This document shows, one piece after another, positions 416 to 63,689 of a stretch of DNA of 63,689 bases. The DNA is from a virus, in the IMG/VR virus record IMGVR_UViG_3300029951_000027; one strand, given 5' to 3'. A program made the translations under genes and the position numbers. Each line of letters starts with the position of its first letter. Position 1 is the stretch's first letter. The notes under the pieces were generated by a model. The model did not search any database. It was given only the letters and a program-made list of their open reading frames with translations, and had not been told where the DNA came from.

Positions 416-519
416 CTGACCACATGCATGCGGCGGGCTGTGCTGGCGCAGCGGTGGCTAGACGATCGTCATGTCGGTCGAGTGGAACCAATGTGCTATG
501 CGGCTACCAGCAGGCTAAT

Positions 520-817
520 CGGCAGATGCCTATGGGTTGTGTACTGTATATAGTAAATTATTATTTTTTTTACAAGTATAGAGAGGCTGATAGCCAGAGA
601 GAGATTGGGGTGTGCACCCCCCTCTCCCTGTATGGGTATCTTAGTATGATATAGGCAACGCACTACTTTCTGCTATTTTCGGCCTGTTTAGTACGCTAAT
701 GCTCGGTTTTACCCATTATATATCCCCGGCCTAGGCCCCTCCCTACCCATTTATCAACATTAGTCTGCTCATTCCCGTGCTAACATAAACACCCACTTCA
801 ATCACTTGGTTCTTATC
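520..817. promoter_or_regulatory. AT-rich intergenic region (candidate early promoter or origin region)
   Basis: This is visibly the most AT-rich stretch of the window (for example tatatagtaaattattatttttttt). It contains TTGTGT (537-542)-16 nt-TATTAT (559-564) and the small palindromes GGCTGATAGCC and GGGGTGTGCACCCC. No protein-like ORF is present. Confidence 0.3.
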
Positions 818-1662: not shown

Positions 1663-4040
1663 AACGACCCCCGCAATGGGGCCGGCTACCTGAAGAGTTG
1701 AAGGCGCGGGCGCAATGGTTGCTCGCTACGCCGGATGCACAGGGTGACCTCAAGGTTCCGACAGGATTGGATGCGGCAGGGCGCCCGGTGCGCTGCGATG
1801 CGCACGCGCCTGCCAACTGGCTGTCGTTTGACGTAGCGTGCGGCGCGGCGCTGCACTACGGCCTAGCCATCGGCTATTGCGTGTCTGCGGACGACCCGTT
1901 TGTCTGCATTGACTTGGACGTCAAGAACCAGACCAACTGTGCTGACCCGGCCAAGTGGACGCCTTCGGAGGTGGTGCAGGGCCACGCAATGATCATGGGG
2001 ACGTTCGAGTCCTACACCGAACGCTCGCAGTCGGGCCAGGGCTTGCACATCTGGGTCAAGGCGCCGGGCTTCGGCCAGGGCGTCAAGCGCGAGTTTGTTG
2101 AAGTCTACTGCCAGGAGCGCTTTCTGGTGTGCACGGGCGACATCGTGCTCGACAAGCCTATTCGGGCGGACGAGACGGTGTGCCAGATGGTGCTGGCGCT
2201 GGTTAACCGCATACGCGATGCGCAACAGGACGACAAGATCGAGTTGGTTGAGCTTGATGAAGAGCTCACGGACTCGGATGTCGTTGAGTCGCTTACGGCA
2301 CAGTCGAACGGCGACAAGTATGTCGAACTGTGCAAGGGCGATTGGCAGGGCATGGGCTTTCCCAGTGGGTCCGAAGCCGACCTAGCCCTGCTGTCCATGC
2401 TGTGCTACAAGAGCGCAGCGAACTCACAAGTGCGCCGGTTGTTCCGCATGACCGCGTTGGGCAAGGACACGCGCAAGAACAACAAGATCAACAAGAACGA
2501 CAAGTACATTGACCGCACGTTGAAGATTATCCGTGCGCGCCAGGAACGCGAGCGTGTAGCGAGTGAGCACGGGCAGGCCCAGGCACAGGCGTTGATAGCG
2601 AGCTTGGCGCCTGCTGGTGCCCCGGCTGCGGGGGTTGCTGGGGTAGTACAGGCAATGGGGCACGCTGCGCAGGCAGGGCAGTCCGAAGCGGGGGCCGTTG
2701 CGCTCGATTGGCCGCCCGGACTTATGGGTCAACTGGCACAGTTCATTTACCACAGCAGCCCGCGCCCTGTGCGTGAGGTGTCCATCGTGGCCGCTATCGG
2801 CCTGCTGGCTGGGATTCTGGGGCGCGCATACAACATCCCCGGTTCTGGCCTTAATATGTACGTCGTCTTGGTGGCCCGTAGTGCGGTGGGCAAGGAAGCC
2901 ATGCACAGCGGGGTGAGCAAGATCATTGCGCAGTTGTCGCAGATGGGGCAACCAAAAGTCCAAGACTTCGTAGACTTTAGCAAGTTCGTCAGCGGCCCAG
3001 CGCTCACTAAGGCTGTGGCAATGAAAACGTCGTTCGTTAACGTAAGCGGTGAATGGGGTAAGACGCTGGCGGCCATGGCTGGCGACGAGAACAAAACGAG
3101 TGGGCCGTTGTCGTCGTTGCGTACAGTGATGACTGACCTATACCAGAAGTCTGCGTTCGGCTCAATCGTCGGCGGCATGGCGTATAGCGATAAGGAAAAG
3201 AACGTCGCGAGTGTGAACGGTGTGGCCTATAGCATGATTGGCGAGACCACACCCAGCACGTTCTACGAGTCATTGACCGAAAGCATGATGGCTGACGGGT
3301 TCTTGTCGCGCTTCCTGATCGTTGAGTACGATGGGGACCGGCCACCCATCAACTACAACCCAGTCAACTTTATGTCGGTCGACGTCGCTAATCACTTGGC
3401 AACGCTAGTCGGAGCCGCAGTTGACCGGTCGCACGGGTGCCAGTTACTCAGCGCCGCCGATGCGGCGGTTGAAGCCATGCACGCATTCAACCTCGAGTGC
3501 GACATGCAGATCAACAGCACGCGCACCAACGAGCCGCATCGACAGATGTGGAACCGGGCGCACCTGAAGATGATGCGACTGGCTGCACTGGTTGCAATTC
3601 CGGACAACCCTGCGTTTCCTAGAATTGAAATACACCATGTGCAATGGGCTTTGCAAGCCATCCGCAACGACATTGCCATCATGACGCGGCGCCTTAACGA
3701 AGGCGATGTCGGCATCAGTGACCACAGCCGCGAACAGAAGCTCCAAACGTACTTCAGTGACTACCTCACTCAAGAAGTCCCCGACAGCTACAACGTCCCC
3801 AAGGCGCTGAAAGCGAACGGCATCATCCCGCGCAAGTACCTCCAGATCCGGAGCCAGAAGACGCCTTCGTTTGTGCAGCATCCGCTAGGCGCCATCCGCG
3901 CACTTGACGAAGCGCTGCGCAACATGGTCGACAGTGGGTACCTGGGGGAGATCAGCAAGGACAAGCTTGCGTCCGAATACGGGTTTAGCGGCAAGGCGTA
4001 CCGCATACTTGAACTTTCAAAGGCGTACAGGAAGCATTGA
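1659..4040 (+). CDS. bifunctional primase-polymerase (AEP) / DUF3987-D5-type helicase
   Basis: AEP motifs CIDLDV and SGQGLHIWV are present, with a PriCT-like segment GFPSGSEADLALLSMLCYKS and a large C-terminal helicase-like domain. The start was set at ATG 1659 (ATGA coupling) rather than 1617. Confidence 0.8.
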   Translation: MKRPPQWGRLPEELKARAQWLLATPDAQGDLKVPTGLDAAGRPVRCDAHAPANWLSFDVACGAALHYGLAIGYCVSADDPFVCIDLDVKNQTNCADPAKWTPSEVVQGHAMIMGTFESYTERSQSGQGLHIWVKAPGFGQGVKREFVEVYCQERFLVCTGDIVLDKPIRADETVCQMVLALVNRIRDAQQDDKIELVELDEELTDSDVVESLTAQSNGDKYVELCKGDWQGMGFPSGSEADLALLSMLCYKSAANSQVRRLFRMTALGKDTRKNNKINKNDKYIDRTLKIIRARQERERVASEHGQAQAQALIASLAPAGAPAAGVAGVVQAMGHAAQAGQSEAGAVALDWPPGLMGQLAQFIYHSSPRPVREVSIVAAIGLLAGILGRAYNIPGSGLNMYVVLVARSAVGKEAMHSGVSKIIAQLSQMGQPKVQDFVDFSKFVSGPALTKAVAMKTSFVNVSGEWGKTLAAMAGDENKTSGPLSSLRTVMTDLYQKSAFGSIVGGMAYSDKEKNVASVNGVAYSMIGETTPSTFYESLTESMMADGFLSRFLIVEYDGDRPPINYNPVNFMSVDVANHLATLVGAAVDRSHGCQLLSAADAAVEAMHAFNLECDMQINSTRTNEPHRQMWNRAHLKMMRLAALVAIPDNPAFPRIEIHHVQWALQAIRNDIAIMTRRLNEGDVGISDHSREQKLQTYFSDYLTQEVPDSYNVPKALKANGIIPRKYLQIRSQKTPSFVQHPLGAIRALDEALRNMVDSGYLGEISKDKLASEYGFSGKAYRILELSKAYRKH

Positions 4041-6800: not shown

Positions 6801-7728
6801 ACAGGCGTTCTTCGACAGGCAGAAGCCCATGCTCGCCTGTGACTGGGACGCGAAGAAGCTCTGTTTTCCGCAGTGGGTGCAGCCGAAGATCGACGGCGTC
6901 CGTGCCCTCAACTTCAAGGGTGTGCTGACGGGCCGTTCGTTCAAGCGGCACAAGAACAAGTTCACTACGGGGTTCTTCACGCACGACCTCACGCTGGGCA
7001 TGGACGGCGAACTGGCAAGCTGGTCAGAGACCGCTCCGGACCTGTGCCGGCGCACAACCAGCGCGGTCGGTACCATCGAAGGCGAGCCCTACTCGCTGTG
7101 GTGGCTGTTCGATTTCATTCAACTGGATGGCGCAGAACTGTCCTACTGCGAACGGTACGCGCGGCTGCAAGACCGGATGGCGACGCTGCAAGTGAACGAA
7201 CCGTTGCTGTGGTCACGTTTGCGGCTGGTGCCGTACAAGGTGGCATATAACGTCGACGACATCGAAGCTATTGACGCGCAATACCTCGAGCTAGGATACG
7301 AAGGATCTATCCTTCGCAATCCTTACGCCCAGTACAAGTCTGGTCGATGCACGCCGACCGAGTCCAACCTGTCGCGTATCAAGCGGTTTAGCGAGGAAGA
7401 GGCTACGGTGACCGCGCTGGTCGAAGGCAACATGAACGGCAATCCGGCTACGGTCAATGAGCTGGGGCAGACCGAACGCAGCTCGCACCAGGACAACATG
7501 ATTCCGAACGGCCAAGTCGGTGCGCTGCTGTGCAAGGACTTGAAGACGGGACAGGACATCACGGTGGCTGCCGGCTGCATGACCCATGCCGAGCGGCTAC
7601 ACTACTTGGCTCACCCCGGCGAGATTGTCGGCAAGGTAATCAAGTTTAAGACATTCGCCCACGGCAAGAAGGACAAGCCGCGCTTCCCCACGTTCCAAAG
7701 CCTGCGGGCAGAGAGCGACATGTCATGA
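6787..7728 (+). CDS. lig: ATP-dependent DNA ligase
   Basis: Motif I is QPKIDGVR (KxDG), with EGSILR and LLCKDL downstream. The start was set at ATG 6787. Confidence 0.8.
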   Translation: MSPFEQAFFDRQKPMLACDWDAKKLCFPQWVQPKIDGVRALNFKGVLTGRSFKRHKNKFTTGFFTHDLTLGMDGELASWSETAPDLCRRTTSAVGTIEGEPYSLWWLFDFIQLDGAELSYCERYARLQDRMATLQVNEPLLWSRLRLVPYKVAYNVDDIEAIDAQYLELGYEGSILRNPYAQYKSGRCTPTESNLSRIKRFSEEEATVTALVEGNMNGNPATVNELGQTERSSHQDNMIPNGQVGALLCKDLKTGQDITVAAGCMTHAERLHYLAHPGEIVGKVIKFKTFAHGKKDKPRFPTFQSLRAESDMS

Positions 7729-16356: not shown

Positions 16357-16384
16357 CAAAGGCGCTTCGGCGCCTTTGTTTTTG
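16357..16384 (+). terminator. Rho-independent terminator
   Basis: The stem CAAAGGCGC-TTCG-GCGCCTTTG is followed by TTTTT. Confidence 0.6.
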
Positions 16385-16426
16385 ATTGCTCCGCAACCCG
16401 CCTCACGGCCACTTATCGGAGTCTGC

Positions 16427-17170
16427 ATGCAGCTGAACAGTCAGCCCATGGAACACATTGATGTCGCGTCGGGAGACGTACTTGATGTCCATTCTATCTT
16501 CTACACCCTGCAAGGTGAAGGCCCCTTCACCGGCCGCCCCGCAGTGTTCATTCGCTTGGCGGGCTGCAACTTGCAGTGTCCAGCCTGTGACACGGACTAC
16601 ACCAGCGGGCGTGAGAAGCGAAGCGTGACCAGCATCATTGCCGGCGTACACAACGCGGCACCCGACAGGGCAGCGCGACCACTTGTGGTCATCACGGGCG
16701 GCGAGCCTTTCCGTCAAAAGATCTACGGCCTGTGCCACGACCTTCTGCGCGAAGGCTACACGGTGCAAATCGAAACGAATGGCACGTTGCCGCCACCCAA
16801 CCCGGTATTCGGAGATCTCTGTTCGACCGACTTGACGGACGAGAACGTGATCTTCATCGTATGCAGCCCCAAGACGGGTCGCGTCAATCGATACCTGGAA
16901 CCACTGGTGGCCGCGTACAAGTACGTTCTCGATGCCGACAGCGTGAACGATGACGACGGTCTGCCGATTCTGGCCCTGGGCCACACGGCCCACCCGCACG
17001 TCGCCCGGCCGCCTGTTGGCTTCCTGGGGCCGGTGTACTTGCAGCCGGCCGACATGCAAGATGAGGCACTGAACAAGCGCAACCGTCAAGCCTGTGTCAT
17101 CCTCGCTATGAACGCACCGGACCGTTTCACGGTTCAGCTTCAGACACACAAGATCCTCAATCTCGAATAA
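16427..17170 (+). CDS. queE: 7-carboxy-7-deazaguanine synthase (radical SAM) QueE
   Basis: The CNLQCPACD (CxxxCxxC) and GGEP motifs are present. ATG 16427 follows GGAG. Confidence 0.85.
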   Translation: MQLNSQPMEHIDVASGDVLDVHSIFYTLQGEGPFTGRPAVFIRLAGCNLQCPACDTDYTSGREKRSVTSIIAGVHNAAPDRAARPLVVITGGEPFRQKIYGLCHDLLREGYTVQIETNGTLPPPNPVFGDLCSTDLTDENVIFIVCSPKTGRVNRYLEPLVAAYKYVLDADSVNDDDGLPILALGHTAHPHVARPPVGFLGPVYLQPADMQDEALNKRNRQACVILAMNAPDRFTVQLQTHKILNLE

Positions 17171-17179
17171 GGTCACCAC

Positions 17180-18580
17180 ATGTGTTCAATCATTGGTGCA
17201 GTCTTGTACCGTCAAAGCGGGCTGCCTTGGGAATTGGAATCGCTGCTGCGTGTCACCTGGGGTAACAGCCTGCGCCGGGGTCGCGACGGGCGCGGGTTTG
17301 TGGCTCGTACTACCGATATCGAAGGCCGCGTCAAAATAGGGTTGAAACGGTCCGTCGTTCGGCGCGAGCATTTCCCGGACATCTACCCGCACATCCCGCC
17401 GTTCACCACGTCGTTTGACATGGTGGGCAACCAGCGGGCGGAGCCGACTACCGAGTTTGTCCAAGACAAGCAAGAGTTCGATCAGCAGCCGTATTCGCAC
17501 AGTGGTTGGCATGTTGTGCACAACGGCACTATCGCCAACGACAAAGAGCTGCGTACGGGTGACGTGCCCACAAGCATCGACAGCGCGGCTATCGTCGAAG
17601 TGCTGGCAAGCGTGTCGCCGAACACAACGGCCTTCGCCAGTGCGATCCGGAAGTTGAAGGGTTCGTATGCAATCCTTGCGATGCATGACAGCCTGCCGGG
17701 CGTCATGTTTTCAGCCTGTAACTACCGCCCTATCTGGTACGTGCAGACGCCAAGCGGCTTTGTGTTTGCTTCAGAACGCGGTGCATTCCCACAAGGTTAC
17801 GTTCCGCAGATGCTGCGACCGTACAGCGTGGCGACGTTCGGGTGCACGGGCACGGTCGAACGCGTTGCGCTGCTGGAACCTGTCGTTGACGGCGAAGCCC
17901 GCAAATCGCTCAAGACAGCGCTGGTCGTGTGCAGCGGCGGCCTGGACAGTGTGGTTAGCGCGGCGGCCATGCAGAAGCGGGGCTATGAGCTTCACCTGAT
18001 TCACTTTCAATACGGGTCGCGTGCGCAAACGCCCGAGCTAGAAGCGGTGCGCAAAGTGGCAAAGCACTTGGGGGCTGACTTCGACATCGTGCCTCTGCCG
18101 ATTTACCGCAAGCAAGACAGTCCGCTCCTGGACCCCGACAGCAAGGTGGCAGGCGGCGAGGCGGGCGCCGAATTCGCGCACGAGTGGGTGCCGGCACGGA
18201 ATACGGTGCTGCTCGCCATGGCGGTCGCATTTGCCGAAGCCAGGGGCTACGAAACGATCGTGCTGGGGAACAACCTGGAAGAAGCCGGGGCGTACCCCGA
18301 CAACGAACCGGAGTTCATTGCCCGCTGGAACGATCTGCTGCCGTTCGCTGTGGGTGACGGCAAACGCATGCGCATCGAGATGCCTGTCGGCAACATGATG
18401 AAGCACGAGATCGTCGCACTGGGGCACGAGTTGGACGCGCCCATGGACATGACGTGGTCGTGCTACAGGGCCGGGGCGCTGCACTGCGGGTCGTGTGGGC
18501 CGTGCTACATGCGTCGGAAGGCGTTCGCGATCAACGGGCTTCCCGAAGTGATCAACTACCAGGATGAGCAAGATGTATAG
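17180..18580 (+). CDS. queC: glutamine amidotransferase-QueC fusion (Gat-QueC)
   Basis: The N-terminal MCSIIG is a Cys2 Ntn amidotransferase signature. The QueC PP-loop CSGGLDS is present, with a C-terminal Zn site C-x8-C-x2-C-x2-C (WSCYRAGALHCGSCGPC). Confidence 0.85.
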   Translation: MCSIIGAVLYRQSGLPWELESLLRVTWGNSLRRGRDGRGFVARTTDIEGRVKIGLKRSVVRREHFPDIYPHIPPFTTSFDMVGNQRAEPTTEFVQDKQEFDQQPYSHSGWHVVHNGTIANDKELRTGDVPTSIDSAAIVEVLASVSPNTTAFASAIRKLKGSYAILAMHDSLPGVMFSACNYRPIWYVQTPSGFVFASERGAFPQGYVPQMLRPYSVATFGCTGTVERVALLEPVVDGEARKSLKTALVVCSGGLDSVVSAAAMQKRGYELHLIHFQYGSRAQTPELEAVRKVAKHLGADFDIVPLPIYRKQDSPLLDPDSKVAGGEAGAEFAHEWVPARNTVLLAMAVAFAEARGYETIVLGNNLEEAGAYPDNEPEFIARWNDLLPFAVGDGKRMRIEMPVGNMMKHEIVALGHELDAPMDMTWSCYRAGALHCGSCGPCYMRRKAFAINGLPEVINYQDEQDV

Positions 18581-19019
18581 ATCGACTAAGACGTATGGGC
18601 ATGACCTGGGCCTGTCCGCCTGCTTCCGCCAGTGGCGAGCTCAGTCGCACTGCAACCTTTTGCATGGGTACGCGCTGGCGTTTACCATCACGTTCGACTG
18701 TGACAAGCTTGACGAAAATGGGTGGGTGATGGACTTTGGCGCACTGAAGCCTGTCAAGACGGAGATCGAACGGCTATTTGATCACACTGTGCTTGTTGCG
18801 TGCGATGATCCTGAACTGAATCGATTCGTGGCGCTGAACAACGCCGGTATGATTCAGTTAGTCGCTGTTCAGCGCACGGGGTGCGAAGCTTTTGCCAAGC
18901 TGGTATTCGACAACGTGACCACATGGCTGCGCAGCTACCAGAAGGGTCGTGTGCGAGTGGTGTCGGTTGAATGCAAGGAACACGGCGCGAACAGCGCCAT
19001 CTACATTGGAGGCAATTGA
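18564..19019 (+). CDS. queD: 6-carboxy-5,6,7,8-tetrahydropterin synthase QueD
   Basis: The N-terminus (STKTYGHDLGLSACFRQW...HCNLLHGY) is PTPS/QueD-like. It overlaps the queC end, and the start could be 18564 or 18573. Confidence 0.8.
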   Translation: MSKMYRSTKTYGHDLGLSACFRQWRAQSHCNLLHGYALAFTITFDCDKLDENGWVMDFGALKPVKTEIERLFDHTVLVACDDPELNRFVALNNAGMIQLVAVQRTGCEAFAKLVFDNVTTWLRSYQKGRVRVVSVECKEHGANSAIYIGGN

Positions 19020-19600
19020 TGAACGCACCGTACGAGAAGCCGCCGACTGTCAATGAGCAGATTATCTATGACGTGCTGGCGCACCTGTGCGGCGAGAACC
19101 CCGAACGGGGTGGTCTGAAGGACACGCCGGCCCGTGTGGTCAAGGCGTGGGAATTCTGGACAAGCGGCTACGGCATGAACGCGGCAGACATCCTCAAGAC
19201 GTTTGAGGACGGTGCCGAGGGTTGCGACCAGATGGTCATTCGCAAGGACATCCCGTTCTACTCGCACTGCGAGCACCACATGGCCGCCATCTTCGGAACA
19301 TGTACCATCGCGTACATCCCGAACGGGCGTGTGGTTGGCCTGTCAAAGATGGATCGCCTGTGCGAGATGTTCATGCGCCGGCTGCAAGTACAGGAAAGAG
19401 CGACCAACCAGATCGCCGATGCGATGATGGAGCACCTCATGCCGACCGGCGTGGGCGTGTACATCAACGCCCGTCATATGTGCGTGGAATCGCGTGGCGT
19501 GCGTAACGGCAACAGCGCGACAATCACGACGGCACTGCGCGGTGCGTTCCTCAACGAGCCGGCAACAAGAGCAGAGTTTCTCGCGGCAGCTCGCGGGTAA
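19019..19600 (+). CDS. folE: GTP cyclohydrolase I FolE
   Basis: GLKDTPARV and the YSHCEHHMAAIFG active-site region are present. The ATG overlaps the queD stop. Confidence 0.85.
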   Translation: MNAPYEKPPTVNEQIIYDVLAHLCGENPERGGLKDTPARVVKAWEFWTSGYGMNAADILKTFEDGAEGCDQMVIRKDIPFYSHCEHHMAAIFGTCTIAYIPNGRVVGLSKMDRLCEMFMRRLQVQERATNQIADAMMEHLMPTGVGVYINARHMCVESRGVRNGNSATITTALRGAFLNEPATRAEFLAAARG

Positions 19601-55259: not shown

Positions 55260-55439
55260 TCAATCTCCTTGGAAACCTGCGGATCGCTTCCATTCGGAAG
55301 CCATGATGCTGTCGGCCGCACAACGGGCGAGAACACCAGCACCGTCGAGGCGCTCGAGAATGAGATCGATACCATTCGACAACAGACGGAATTTGAACCC
55401 GTTGTATACCTTGGACCAACTACTGATTACGCGTTCCAT
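55260..55439 (-). CDS. hypothetical protein (59 aa)
   Basis: ATG 55439 lies within track ORF 55260..55481. Confidence 0.35.
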   Translation of the reverse strand: MERVISSWSKVYNGFKFRLLSNGIDLILERLDGAGVLARCAADSIMASEWKRSAGFQGD

Positions 55440-55491
55440 AGTGATTACCTTTTGATTGCGGATGCACCCACTGTAGCGCATCCGCCGTGCT

Positions 55492-61781: not shown

Positions 61782-62147
61782 TCAGCCGACCTGGACGGTC
61801 ACCGTCTGCGCGACGGGCTGCATGTTGGCCGGGGGCGGCACCGGCGTCGGGCTGGGGGCGGGTGCTGAGACGGTGCCGCTGTAGCTGACCGCCGCGCCCA
61901 GCGCCGCGCCCGTGCTGTCGACGGTCTGGACCGAACCCGTGAAGCCGCCGACCGGGATGTCGTCTGCGAAGACCAGCGTCGTCACGAGCGTGGACGAACC
62001 GTCCGGGTTTGGCGTCAGGGTGCTGGCGGAGACGGTGCCGGTGTGCTGTGCGCCTTCGCTGTCCACGACCGTGGCGTTGAAGCTGGCCGTGGTGACGCCA
62101 CTGGCGACGCTGGTGAGTGCCGCCACGATGAGGAGGGAAAGTTTCAT
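61782..62147 (-). CDS. secreted Thr/Ser/Val-rich protein with signal peptide
   Basis: The N-terminus is MKLSLLIVAALTSVASG, with AGGA upstream and a Pro-rich C-terminal segment. Confidence 0.55.
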   Translation of the reverse strand: MKLSLLIVAALTSVASGVTTASFNATVVDSEGAQHTGTVSASTLTPNPDGSSTLVTTLVFADDIPVGGFTGSVQTVDSTGAALGAAVSYSGTVSAPAPSPTPVPPPANMQPVAQTVTVQVG

Positions 62148-62207
62148 TTCAGGTTCCTAGCTAGGGAGTTGTGACCACACTTGACGCGGTGGCCTTGCGG
62201 TTTGTAA

Positions 62208-62358
62208 GGTGTCGAGCGCAGGAATCGAACCTGCCGCGAGTGTTGAATGGACTGTTGGTGCTTGCGCACAAGGCTGCCAGCCCTACAGCTACGCCGAACG
62301 CATGCCTTCTGACAGATGCCTGCGTTCGACCACTCGGCGCACCATTGCACCGCTCGAC
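62208..62358 (-). ncRNA. tRNA-like module: canonical T-arm and 7-bp acceptor stem, with a non-canonical 113-nt three-hairpin body
   Basis: The T-arm is GCAGG-TTCGATT-CCTGC (62234..62218). The acceptor stem pairs GTCGAGC (62358..62352) with GCTCGAC (62217..62211), followed by ACC. The interior folds completely into helices (see findings) but has no D or anticodon arm of standard geometry. Confidence 0.5.
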
Positions 62359-63346
62359 GAAATTGGATGGCCTTCTCCGTGCGACTTACGTCCACGGCGA
62401 GGCGGCCTATTACGCGCCTTCCTCAAGGGCGCGACACATCGGTGCCGGTTGCGGCCGGCGTCGTTCGGCGGATTCTGCTTCTCGACCGCTTTTGTCCGCA
62501 CGAACCTACCACGCATAACCCGGTGGCCTGTAGGCGGACTAATTTGGCGCGAGCACCGCCCAGCCCGTGACGCATGGTGGCAACTCGATCCCTCTCAGGA
62601 TTGGAGATTCCACGCGCTCGGTAACGCAGGTTCAGATGCAGTGCTCGCATAAATGTTACGGTGGACAGCCCACCCTTGGCGCTGCCGTGCCCATCACTGG
62701 GTGCGGGCAAGCCGCCCACCGTAACGTTCAATGAATGCTTTAGCAGAACGCCTCTTGTCGCATACGCAGATTGGTACCATCTACGCAGCCAAGCGACTGA
62801 CCTGAGCGCCTCCTCCAGAATCATGCCGGCAGCTTGGCCGGTGTACTTCCGGTTAATCTACCTTGCATGCCACGACGACCACTTACAGAGCGCGAAGCGC
62901 CCTGCTAAAGCATTCAATCTTCTCGAATTGTGAAAGAGCGGGTGTCACAGGGCGCTTCGTAGCCGGCGCATACTCGGCATTGCCCTGTGACGTGTGACTT
63001 GCGCCACCATGCGCGGCCTACTTGCATAGGCAGGTCGCAGGACATGTGCAAGCATGGCCCACGTATGATGCGATGTCCCAGATTTGTGATGGTCACCTAC
63101 CCCTGGGCGGGGTGTCCCGTGACGAGCTGGCCGGGCGTGCATCCTGTGAAGGCTGCGGCGCCAAGCCTACGGGCTGTTGTGCGATGGTGCTGGTTATGTT
63201 CTGTTGAAGTGCAAGGCGAATGCCCTTCGGCTTGCCGAGTACCCACCACGGTGCATAGCCGCCTAGTGGACACTCGCCTTGCGCTTCGTGTTGGTTGCAC
63301 TGTAAGCCGGTTAGCAGTACGGTGCAACTTGACGGCGGCAGGCTGA
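62359..63346 (-). ncRNA. candidate large structured non-coding RNA (family unknown)
   Basis: No protein-like ORF is present. Several 10-20 bp long-range helices contain G.U pairs, and GNRA loops are valid only on the minus strand. The block is co-oriented with its flanking genes, with no intervening terminator. Confidence 0.35.
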
Positions 63347-63520
63347 CTACTTCTTCTTGCTGGCCTGCGCCATGCGCGAAGCCTTCCTGCGCTCGGCTTC
63401 GATAGCGGCCTTGATGTCGCCCTTCGACTTGCCGGCGCCGGCGATATGCGGGCGGCGCAAGGACTTGCCCATCGCGGCGTATCCGTTGGCAGTGTGGACC
63501 TTGGTGAAGCGGCGGGGCAT
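63347..63520 (-). CDS. small basic protein (57 aa)
   Basis: I read it manually as MPRRFTKVHTANGYAAMGKSLRRPHIAGAGKSKGDIKAAIEAERRKASRMAQASKKK. AGGAG lies 9 nt upstream and G/C is strong at third codon positions. It is below the ORF-track cutoff. Confidence 0.55.
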   Translation of the reverse strand: MPRRFTKVHTANGYAAMGKSLRRPHIAGAGKSKGDIKAAIEAERRKASRMAQASKKK

Positions 63521-63562
63521 GGAGTGGCTCCTGGTTGGTTGCTGTGACCACGGTGTATCGGT

Positions 63563-63689
63563 CGTTCAGGCGTTGTGCCGGCATCAAGCTGTGGTACAGT
63601 TGCTGGACAACCAGGAGCAAACATGAGCGGCAATAGCTATCGAAGACGTCTTAAGAAGGCCGAACGCAAGGGCTTTGTGCAAGGCTGGC
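63563..63689. repeat. Terminal direct repeat copy B (identical to 1..127)
   Basis: Read directly. It contains the promoter-like site, RBS and first 67 nt of the gene that starts at 61. Confidence 0.95.

Follow-up and report, generated by a model that had tools for sequence, protein, structure and literature searches.

Several RNAs are known that borrow the fold of transfer RNA (tRNA) without decoding, and the closest analogue of the element described here appears to be RNA C (species 1 RNA, gene rnaC) of phage T4, whose function is still unknown after ca. 50 years (PMC3014915, PMC9697503). The element occupies the minus strand at 62358..62208 of IMG/VR record IMGVR_UViG_3300029951_000027, a stretch of 63,689 nucleotides (nt) that is called the window below and represents a complete or near-complete metagenomic phage genome of 63.7 kb. 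In silico analyses indicate that it is very probably a conserved and structured tRNA-like RNA gene, and we put at roughly 60% the probability that its product is a stand-alone, non-decoding, tRNA-shaped RNA that would mature in the manner of a tRNA. An earlier reading of the window, made without database searches (the sequence-only reading), had proposed a non-decoding tRNA-like module at this place; the proposal as such was borne out, but the internal layout had to be revised (see below).

Comparison with described tRNA-like RNAs

RNA C is encoded, together with RNA D, within the tRNA gene cluster of T4 and, with 139 nt, is similar in size to the element. Like the element, it has a canonical T-arm (CCGGG-UUCGAAU-CCCGG); the next 7 nt pair with the 5' end (CGAUUCG/CGUUUCG), and there are two internal hairpins and no anticodon arm. 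The likeness holds for both position and anatomy, the element being found in a phage tRNA array in two relatives (contigs L065 and L194) and combining a T-arm with an acceptor-like helix. No sequence or profile homology was found, however, the covariance model of the element matching rnaC at its T-arm only (8.3 bits), and rnaC further differs by an acceptor-like stem with two U-U mismatches, by an ACC that is not encoded, by an inner helix that encloses one hairpin and not both, and by the absence of a GGUGCA-AUGG-UGCGCC hairpin.

The tRNA-like domain of transfer-messenger RNA (tmRNA) resembles the element in its open acceptor stem of 7 base pairs (bp), which carries CCA, and in its T-arm; in both, the anticodon arm is replaced and a long helix opens into a large insert. 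In contrast to tmRNA, the element has no conserved G3-U70 pair, tag frame or detected pseudoknots, it measures 133-203 nt in the relatives versus at least ca. 230 nt, and it carries a true hairpin in the D position where tmRNA has a D-loop analogue. The tRNA-like module of YrlA RNAs is also a non-decoding mimic, built with a T-arm and an element resembling a D-arm; in M. smegmatis, YrlA is cleaved by RNase P and receives CCA, and YrlA RNAs are characterized by a Ro-binding motif (GNCGAAN0-1G) and by a Ro60 (TROVE) gene within ca. 4 kb (PMC4201824). Their acceptor-like part is an internal stem-loop, whereas the acceptor stem of the element is the terminus of the molecule, which has no conserved GNCGAA and no Ro60 neighbour among the Pfam matches listed.

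The mascRNA and MEN-beta elements and the tRNA-like units of gammaherpesviruses, which are eukaryotic or belong to eukaryotic viruses, are ca. 60-75 nt long and possess cloverleaf arms. They resemble the element in having a non-decoding tRNA-like fold within a longer transcript and in the expected recruitment of RNase P and a 3' nuclease, but the element belongs to a bacterial phage, is twice as long, contains a large insert and is strongly conserved in parts outside the minihelix. Finally, engineered "tRNA scaffold" RNAs, in which a structured insert at the anticodon stem reportedly leads, in bacteria, to cleavage by RNase P and to a highly stable RNA, have the same topology (acceptor, D and T arms kept) but are artificial; the element would be their natural counterpart, with a fast-evolving natural insert. 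No published description of this RNA family was found in the literature.

A tRNA-like fold with a replaced anticodon loop

The letters on which the sequence-only reading was based are found exactly on the minus strand (GUCGAGC ... GCAGG-UUCGAUU-CCUGC-GCUCGAC-A-CC), and the acceptor stem, T-arm, discriminator A (62210) and CC (62209..62208) are all present as it described them. The 5' strand of the acceptor stem, GUCGAGC (62352..62358, minus strand as for the features of the window given below unless stated otherwise; element positions 1-7), pairs perfectly with the 3' strand GCUCGAC (62211..62217), a pairing that is kept in homologues. A canonical T-arm, GCAGG-UUCGAUU-CCUGC (62218..62234; positions 125-141), joins this stem without linker, so that the 7 + 5 bp form a 12-bp coaxial minihelix, and the 3' end (62208..62210) consists of the discriminator A and CC, the window reading ACCU. 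The features of a canonical tRNA that were recognized are thus the 7-bp acceptor stem, the 5-bp T-stem with its UUCRANY loop, and the discriminator with CCA.

Between these strands, a D-arm-like hairpin, GGUGCA-AUGG-UGCGCC (62336..62351; positions 8-13/18-23), has a 6-bp stem and a 4-nt loop containing GG, follows the acceptor stem with a linker of zero length and is present in the minimum-free-energy fold. Next to it, an anticodon-stem-like helix pairs GAGUG (62331..62335) with CACUC (62238..62242; positions 24-28/117-121) and is backed by conservation and covariation, while a 3-nt linker, GCG (62235..62237), lies where a tRNA has its variable loop. The claim of the sequence-only reading that no 5-7-5 anticodon arm can be drawn is upheld in the sequence of the element. 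Its view that D and anticodon arms had been swapped for three hairpins is not, as the D-arm-like hairpin and the anticodon-stem-like helix both exist and are both conserved; it is only the anticodon loop that is replaced, by a branched insert.

The 151-nt fold has a z-score of -3.5 with acceptor stem and T-arm kept, and the predicted mature form in the window measures ca. 149-152 nt. A strict descriptor (Watson-Crick T-stem, UUCRANN loop and an exact 7-nt complement located 40-300 nt upstream) matched once in the window and in only one of 300 dinucleotide shuffles (mean 0.003 per window), which makes a chance origin unlikely. A second T-arm-like site, ACGGG-UUCAAAU-UCCGU at 55474..55379, was set aside as a chance occurrence: it overlaps the start of an open reading frame (ORF), its acceptor partners are G-U-rich with many alternatives, and its z-score is -1.6.

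Neither ARAGORN nor the tRNA and tmRNA models of Rfam resolve an ordinary or intron-bearing tRNA at this place, an outcome that would have spoken against the sequence-only reading. ARAGORN predicted 0 genes in the window and no tmRNA at default settings, and its intron mode (introns to 200 nt, default thresholds) made no call on the element. The Rfam tRNA model gave no match at E<=10 over 61900-63689, and at the element Rfam models including those for tRNA, tmRNA and YrlA returned nothing at either the gathering or the E<=10 threshold.

Homologues of the element

Primase homologues with 64-71% identity led to contigs L049, L051, L053 and L058. The first three have a 1.5-kb gene-free gap in the same place, with the element co-directional with the downstream genes, and in L058 the element is present in a gap of ca. 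0.9 kb. L065, the single IMG/VR member, was recovered by means of the conserved 5' motif, and L194 was reached via a protein neighbour of L065. Alignments were made of six members and then of all seven, namely the window and these six contigs; L008 was kept outside the core family as a diverged relative. The 121-amino-acid (aa) protein encoded next to the element has two homologues only, both diverged, one of which is in L008; upstream of it lies an acceptor/T-arm element with compensatory changes in the acceptor stem (GUUGAUG/CAUCAAC) and T-stem (GCGGG/CCCGC), matched by the family covariance model at the T-arm alone (12 bits). Several assemblies from ENA, JGI and Logan contain identical copies of the window sequence.

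Other searches added no members. The phage collection contained no BLAST match to the gap or to a 24-kb query, and IMG/VR scans with the 121-aa protein, the exact 3' end or a first degenerate pattern likewise returned nothing. Scanning IMG/VR with GGTGCAATGGTGCNCCG gave 12 matches, L065 being the sole genuine member, and it was again the only find of a 3' motif scan; in genome contigs, GGTGCAATGGTGCNCCG yielded only chance matches, of which ca. 280 are expected (16 fixed bases, 596 Gb). The top terminase match, Rhizobium phage RHph_TM3_3_3, is an unrelated temperate phage and was rejected as a relative. More distant primase relatives (L009-L011, NP1, VPv62 and L055) have neither gap nor element, the element is absent from L196 (a 65% AAA_24 relative), and contigs L054 and L059 end before the region concerned.

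A metagenome scan with AGTCNATT followed by a T-arm recovered 36 loci, none of which belongs to the family (covariance model score <=33 bits); they correspond to ordinary tRNAs, apparent tmRNA 3' ends and intron-bearing tRNA-Tyr-like genes. The latter (L027 643-744, L048 3284-3385, L029 1840-1937 and L033) have normal acceptor, D and T arms and an anticodon loop that starts with CUGUAG and continues into a 25-75 nt insert; they adjoin tRNA clusters, are missed by ARAGORN and look like intron-bearing class-I tRNA-Tyr unrelated to the element.

Conservation and covariation of the core

In six to seven homologues, 99.3-99.4% of the cells of all 23 core pairs are paired, and double-sided changes occur in 13 cells belonging to 5 pairs. 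The covariation score of the core was reached by none of 500 shuffles, and slid controls, with the partner shifted by 1-3 columns, were paired at 27-58%. The core therefore covaries in related phages, five pairs showing changes on both sides, and the pairing of acceptor stem and T-arm, whose loss in homologues would have spoken against the sequence-only reading, is conserved.

The acceptor stem (1-7/142-148) is 100% paired and occurs in four versions (GUCGAGC, GGAAGGC, GGGUCGC and GGGUUGC), in which both sides change at pairs 2-5 and pairs 1, 6 and 7 are invariant. The D-arm-like hairpin is also 100% paired in the seven sequences, with U10-G21 replaced by U10-A21 in three. The anticodon-stem-like helix has 97% of its cells paired, with one compensatory pair and two G-U variants; in L053 it reads GGAUG/CAUUC (G-C to A-U and A-U to G-U) and L065 has a G-U. 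The T-arm stem is invariant in the seven homologues, and its loop differs by one base in L049 (UUCGAUC). Every copy encodes ACC, and four of the seven (L051, L053, L058 and L065) encode ACCA, L049 and L194 ending in ACCC and ACCU, respectively. Without acceptor pairs 2-5, the core is 86-100% identical among members and 91-100% identical to the window copy; the primase genes share 67-82% nucleotide identity (five phages with the primase on the contig).

The G-U pairs of the core (U10-G21, G3-U70 in L194, G24-U121 in L065 and G25-U120 in L053) would be A-C on the other strand, which assigns the fold to the minus-strand transcript.

A variable insert between conserved junction strands

The insert enclosed by the anticodon-stem-like helix ranges from 73 to 143 nt and has no sequence conservation. 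Its usual order is hairpin A (62293..62330 in the window), GUA (62290..62292), hairpin B (62251..62289) and GUCCAUUCAA; the hairpins vary among homologues, hairpin A in both sequence and length, while the junction strands are conserved. The window copy of hairpin B contains GUGC-GCAA-GCAC. The linker GUA lies inside the motif GC-GUA-GC with one hairpin on either side: GUAGC is present in six of the seven homologues and separates hairpins A and B in the window, L053, L049 and L065, the same four in which hairpin A is seen when the insert is folded alone. In L194 it falls within hairpin B, and the L051 fold does not place it.

The single-stranded junction strand CCAUUCAA (62243..62250), part of the conserved GUCCAUUCAACA, is identical in five of the seven members, altered in L058 and absent in L194. 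It is complementary to the region of the D-like loop (AAUGG), and a tertiary contact between the two may form but is not required; an AUGG/CCAU pseudoknot is kept in five to six of the seven members but absent in L194, and was rejected as a required feature.

The interior helices drawn in the sequence-only reading are complementary in the window sequence but find no support in the homologues. Its closing helix (13-17/109-113) is 86.7% paired with zero compensatory changes, L194 lacking the CCAUU strand, and the outer helix of its first hairpin (18-23/64-69) is paired at 52.8% in poorly aligned interior columns. The resemblance to a class-II D-arm is peculiar to the window copy, only CCGAGU being kept, within other helices.

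An RNA island in a 7-deazaguanine phage

The element is the 3' unit of a 1.2-kb non-coding stretch (63346..62148) in which analysis of G+C content at third codon positions (GC3) found no coding frame, the flanking 57-aa and 121-aa ORFs having a GC3 of ca. 0.9. At least three further covarying domains are found there, and the element and its neighbours form an RNA island arranged like a tRNA operon.

The first neighbour, module b (62545..62652), is a 108-nt rod-like RNA, UUAU-GCGAGCAC...CGUUACCGAG...UCACGGG...GUGCUCGC-G-CCA, that is found beside the element in every relative, measures 86-108 nt across homologues and ends in N-CCA in all copies. Compensatory double changes affect 12 of its 28 predicted pairs (seven homologues), and it may constitute a separate new RNA family. 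It is abutted upstream by a long-range hairpin, GAACGUUACGGUGG...CCACCGUAACAUU (62652..62729), with 19 pairs, nine compensatory doubles and 97.9% of cells paired in five homologues; the interior of this hairpin is variable and in L058 holds a T-arm (GGCGG-UUCAAGU-CCGCC). A further long hairpin (63209..63284) carries the near-invariant internal motif CCGUGGUGGGUAC (63251..63239) and has 19 pairs with six compensatory doubles in four homologues. Rfam contains neither module b nor the two hairpins, and a weak MIR399 match on the hairpin 63209..63284 was discarded as spurious, being due only to the long-hairpin shape.

Smaller features were seen in the same stretch. A conserved hairpin, GGGACACCCC...GGGGUAGGUGACCA, lies at 63087-63118 near the hairpin 63209..63284, and another, GUUGCAC...GUGCAAC, at 63294-63328 directly after the 57-aa ORF. 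Directly upstream of the 121-aa ORF, the motif GGCCACCGCGUCAAGUGUGGUCACAACUCCCUAGCUAGGA (62155-62194) is kept in L007, L008 and L053, its hairpin part also in L049 and L051, which is repeated in diverged form at 62508-62529; the motif may serve as a promoter or operator of the phage or as an element of the 5' untranslated region. The last part of the 57-aa ORF (63384-63395, CGAGCGCAGGAA) is perfectly complementary over 12 nt to the T-stem/acceptor 3' strand of the element (62213-62224, UUCCUGCGCUCG), with an estimated chance probability of ca. 0.1 in 2 kb. In the gap of L051, an extra T-arm (7193-7216, minus strand), GUCGG-UUCGAUU-CCGGC followed by UGUCACCAG, has no acceptor partner within 500 nt and could be a tRNA-like unit in decay.

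In L065 and L194, the element leads a compact RNA array within an early operon. Common to both arrays are the element, module b, a tRNA-Thr(UGU) and a second tRNA-like RNA with an oversized anticodon loop; adjacent units are separated by a few nt in L065 and at several L194 junctions, and several have N-CCA ends. In L194, the element (2643-2814, plus strand), with the acceptor GGGUUGC/GCAAUCC, G3-U70 and A73, is accompanied by two extra units on the same strand: a ca. 145-nt RNA (2830-2975) with a 17-bp long-range closing helix, UUUUGGAAGACUGUCGU/ACGACAGUCUUCCAAAA, and a 60-nt hairpin, GAUCAGC...GCUGAUC-G-CCA (3090-3148). As one unit of these arrays the element marks no boundary between RNA and mRNA, and this position beside tRNA-Thr favours a stable-RNA gene.

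Copies of the second tRNA-like family occur in L053 (6179-6259, minus strand), L058 (ca. 440-520, minus strand), L065 (12652-12738, plus strand) and L194 (3231-3308, plus strand). They have a normal acceptor, D-arm (UAGCUCAGUCUGGUAGAG) and T-arm and an abnormal anticodon loop, of 8-14 nt in L053, L065 and L194 and of ca. 5 nt in L058. Those of L053 and L065 exceed the Rfam tRNA threshold with 36-43 bits, and ARAGORN decodes none of the copies.

As to the phage itself, the window encodes terminase, portal, major capsid and tail proteins and a primase, whose cultured relatives are of the Queuovirinae type (NP1, PaMx25, Seurat and CAjan, ca. 42-50% identity). A 7-deazaguanine cluster on the plus strand (16376-19600) comprises a radical-SAM QueE-like protein, a Gat-QueC fusion, QueD/PTPS and FolE and, by analogy with Queuovirinae, implies modified DNA.

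Alternative explanations

The alternative that survives best, though we regard it as unlikely, is that the element is only a mark for processing, comparable to MALAT1/mascRNA or to mitochondrial tRNA punctuation, at which RNase P and a 3' nuclease would part the upstream structured RNAs from the mRNA of the 121-aa ORF, and that the excised piece has no function. It is indeed the last RNA unit before same-strand protein-coding genes in the window, L049, L051 and L053, and scans for sigma-70 promoters and intrinsic terminators detected no separate signal that could delimit it. For such a role, however, the acceptor/T minihelix would suffice. Conservation extends further: measured against the window copy, GUA, GUCCAUUCAACA, the D-like hairpin and the anticodon-like stem retain 91-100% identity, in phages with primase genes that are only 67-82% identical. 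In L065 and L194 the element is followed by RNA units and no mRNA, and the neighbouring units bear their own terminal helix and N-CCA, hence their own processing signals. Because of this conservation beyond the minihelix and of the termini of its neighbours, pure punctuation is less likely than a stand-alone tRNA-shaped RNA, although the processing signal suggested in the sequence-only reading is compatible with the data.

Far less probable is a small tmRNA-like molecule, or another RNA open to aminoacylation (with alanine, for example), that would act on ribosomes or in tRNA-dependent transfer. The open acceptor end, A73 and CCA would suit such a molecule, as would G3-U70 in L194 (GGGUUGC/GCAAUCC), the identity pair of alanyl-tRNA synthetase. 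This pair is nevertheless found in L194 alone, the other six of the seven members having a Watson-Crick pair at 3:70 (C-G, A-U or G-C). Weak Rfam matches to tmRNA and beta_tmRNA in L008 and L194 cover the T-arm region only and score 13-15 bits versus gathering scores of 47-84. No tag reading frame or pseudoknots were detected in the element, whose insert of 73-143 nt has no conserved reading frame and whose total length of 133-203 nt is below the known tmRNA size; to the absence of a default ARAGORN tmRNA call can be added that the single relaxed call has a tag that is not conserved.

A decoding tRNA whose anticodon-loop intron is spliced out is highly improbable, even though the insert occupies the very site of such an intron and is closed by a 5-6 bp stem. 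ARAGORN can be made to force a parse (-ps80, introns up to 200 nt), but it then reads the full-length element as Glu, Val, Arg, Gly, Val and Leu in different homologues, an inconsistency of anticodons that fails the intron-tRNA hypothesis, and makes 10 spurious calls in 1.8 kb; at default its intron mode is silent. No U33-containing 7-nt loop can be built from the conserved ends that border the insert (G... and ...GUCCAUUCAA); the insert falls short of group I intron size and has no Rfam intron match, and the D-like arm has no 8-9 linker and a loop of 4 nt.

We give equally little credit to a mimic of the YrlA type, a comparison drawn in the sequence-only reading, that would tether a Ro60-type protein. 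YrlA RNAs do mimic the D-arm, T-arm and acceptor of tRNA and are found in some phages, but in most of them the acceptor-like stem is closed, unlike the open CCA end of the element (PMC4201824). The window copy contains GUCGAACG, which fits the motif GNCGAAN0-1G; GNCGAA is absent from the six other homologues. The YrlA model (RF02553) misses the element even at E<=10, and a match in L065 covers two neighbouring tRNAs with 19 bits versus a gathering score of 69, so that by the model and by the motif rule (PMC4201824) the element falls outside this class. No TROVE/Ro60 domain occurs among the Pfam matches listed (25 of the 54 families in the main listing).

Finally, phage attP sites often hold the part of a tRNA gene from the T-arm to the 3' end, but an attP remnant with a coincidental upstream complement is barely conceivable here: the T-arm, acceptor strand and ACC are tRNA-perfect, yet the two strands of the acceptor stem co-vary, four versions being known, no integrase is among the Pfam matches listed, the primase relatives are Queuovirinae-type phages and the element relocates with other RNA genes in L065 and L194.

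Proposed maturation and role

A stand-alone, non-decoding tRNA-shaped RNA could arise as follows. Transcription of the minus strand would run from the 57-aa ORF through the 1.2-kb array, with the element as last unit, to the 121-aa ORF and the tail-gene operon. RNase P would cut between C62359 and G62358, and the 3' end would be trimmed to ACC and then completed to CCA by the CCA-adding enzyme of the host. These steps are deduced from the substrate rules of the two enzymes: a 12-bp acceptor/T minihelix with RCCA is the standard substrate of bacterial RNase P, and the element has both the 12-bp minihelix and an RCCA-type 3' end. The same cuts would part the upstream RNAs from the downstream mRNA as a by-product, and the result would be a stable RNA of ca. 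150 nt. In the predicted four-way junction, the 7-bp acceptor stem would stack on the T-arm, the AUGG loop of the D-arm-like hairpin could meet the T-loop, and the anticodon-stem-like helix would close the variable insert, forming in most copies a three-way junction of two hairpins; an L-shape is plausible in this model.

An invariant elbow core combined with freely varying acceptor pairs and a fast-evolving insert fits recognition of shape and not decoding. We tentatively suggest that the invariant elbow and the acceptor/CCA end may occupy a host factor that recognizes the tRNA shape, the RNA acting as a mimic or decoy, or alternatively that the tRNA fold may serve as a stabilizing scaffold for the insert.

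Several observations weigh against the reading as a stand-alone RNA matured like a tRNA. The family is small (seven members and one diverged form), and four of the seven share one acceptor sequence, so that the covariation stems from few independent events; variation in the T-arm and D-like hairpin is so slight that it would say little either way on pairing. The zero-length linker between acceptor and D-like stem and the 4-nt D-like loop differ from canonical tRNA. The scans for sigma-70 promoters and intrinsic terminators found none, and no Ro60/TROVE, CCA-adding enzyme, RNA ligase or integrase was found among the Pfam matches listed.

At a more speculative level, the element might represent, with the RNAs around it, an undescribed class of phage "CCA-tailed RNA arrays", that is, of non-decoding acceptor-end mimics matured like tRNA; its companions would be module b, the hairpin of L194 that ends in CCA and those tRNA-like RNAs whose anticodon loops are oversized. 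Such RNAs could be decoys or substrates for host systems that attack tRNA acceptor ends or the elbow, for which nucleotidyltransferase or nuclease toxins of abortive-infection systems could be candidates, and some members, such as L194 with its G3-U70, might be aminoacylated. If this were true, an arms race would explain why acceptor pairs 2-5 and the insert vary freely.

The element is best classed with the known, poorly understood non-decoding tRNA-like stable RNAs of phage tRNA clusters, and the puzzle of T4 RNA C and D thereby gains a second, independent family with clear covariation and very strong sequence constraint. In this clade of 7-deazaguanine phages, what appears as an "intergenic" gap of 1.2-1.6 kb corresponds to at least four to five unannotated structured RNAs, none of which is in Rfam, and the family offers a tractable test case for phage tRNA mimicry, be it as decoy, scaffold or substrate.

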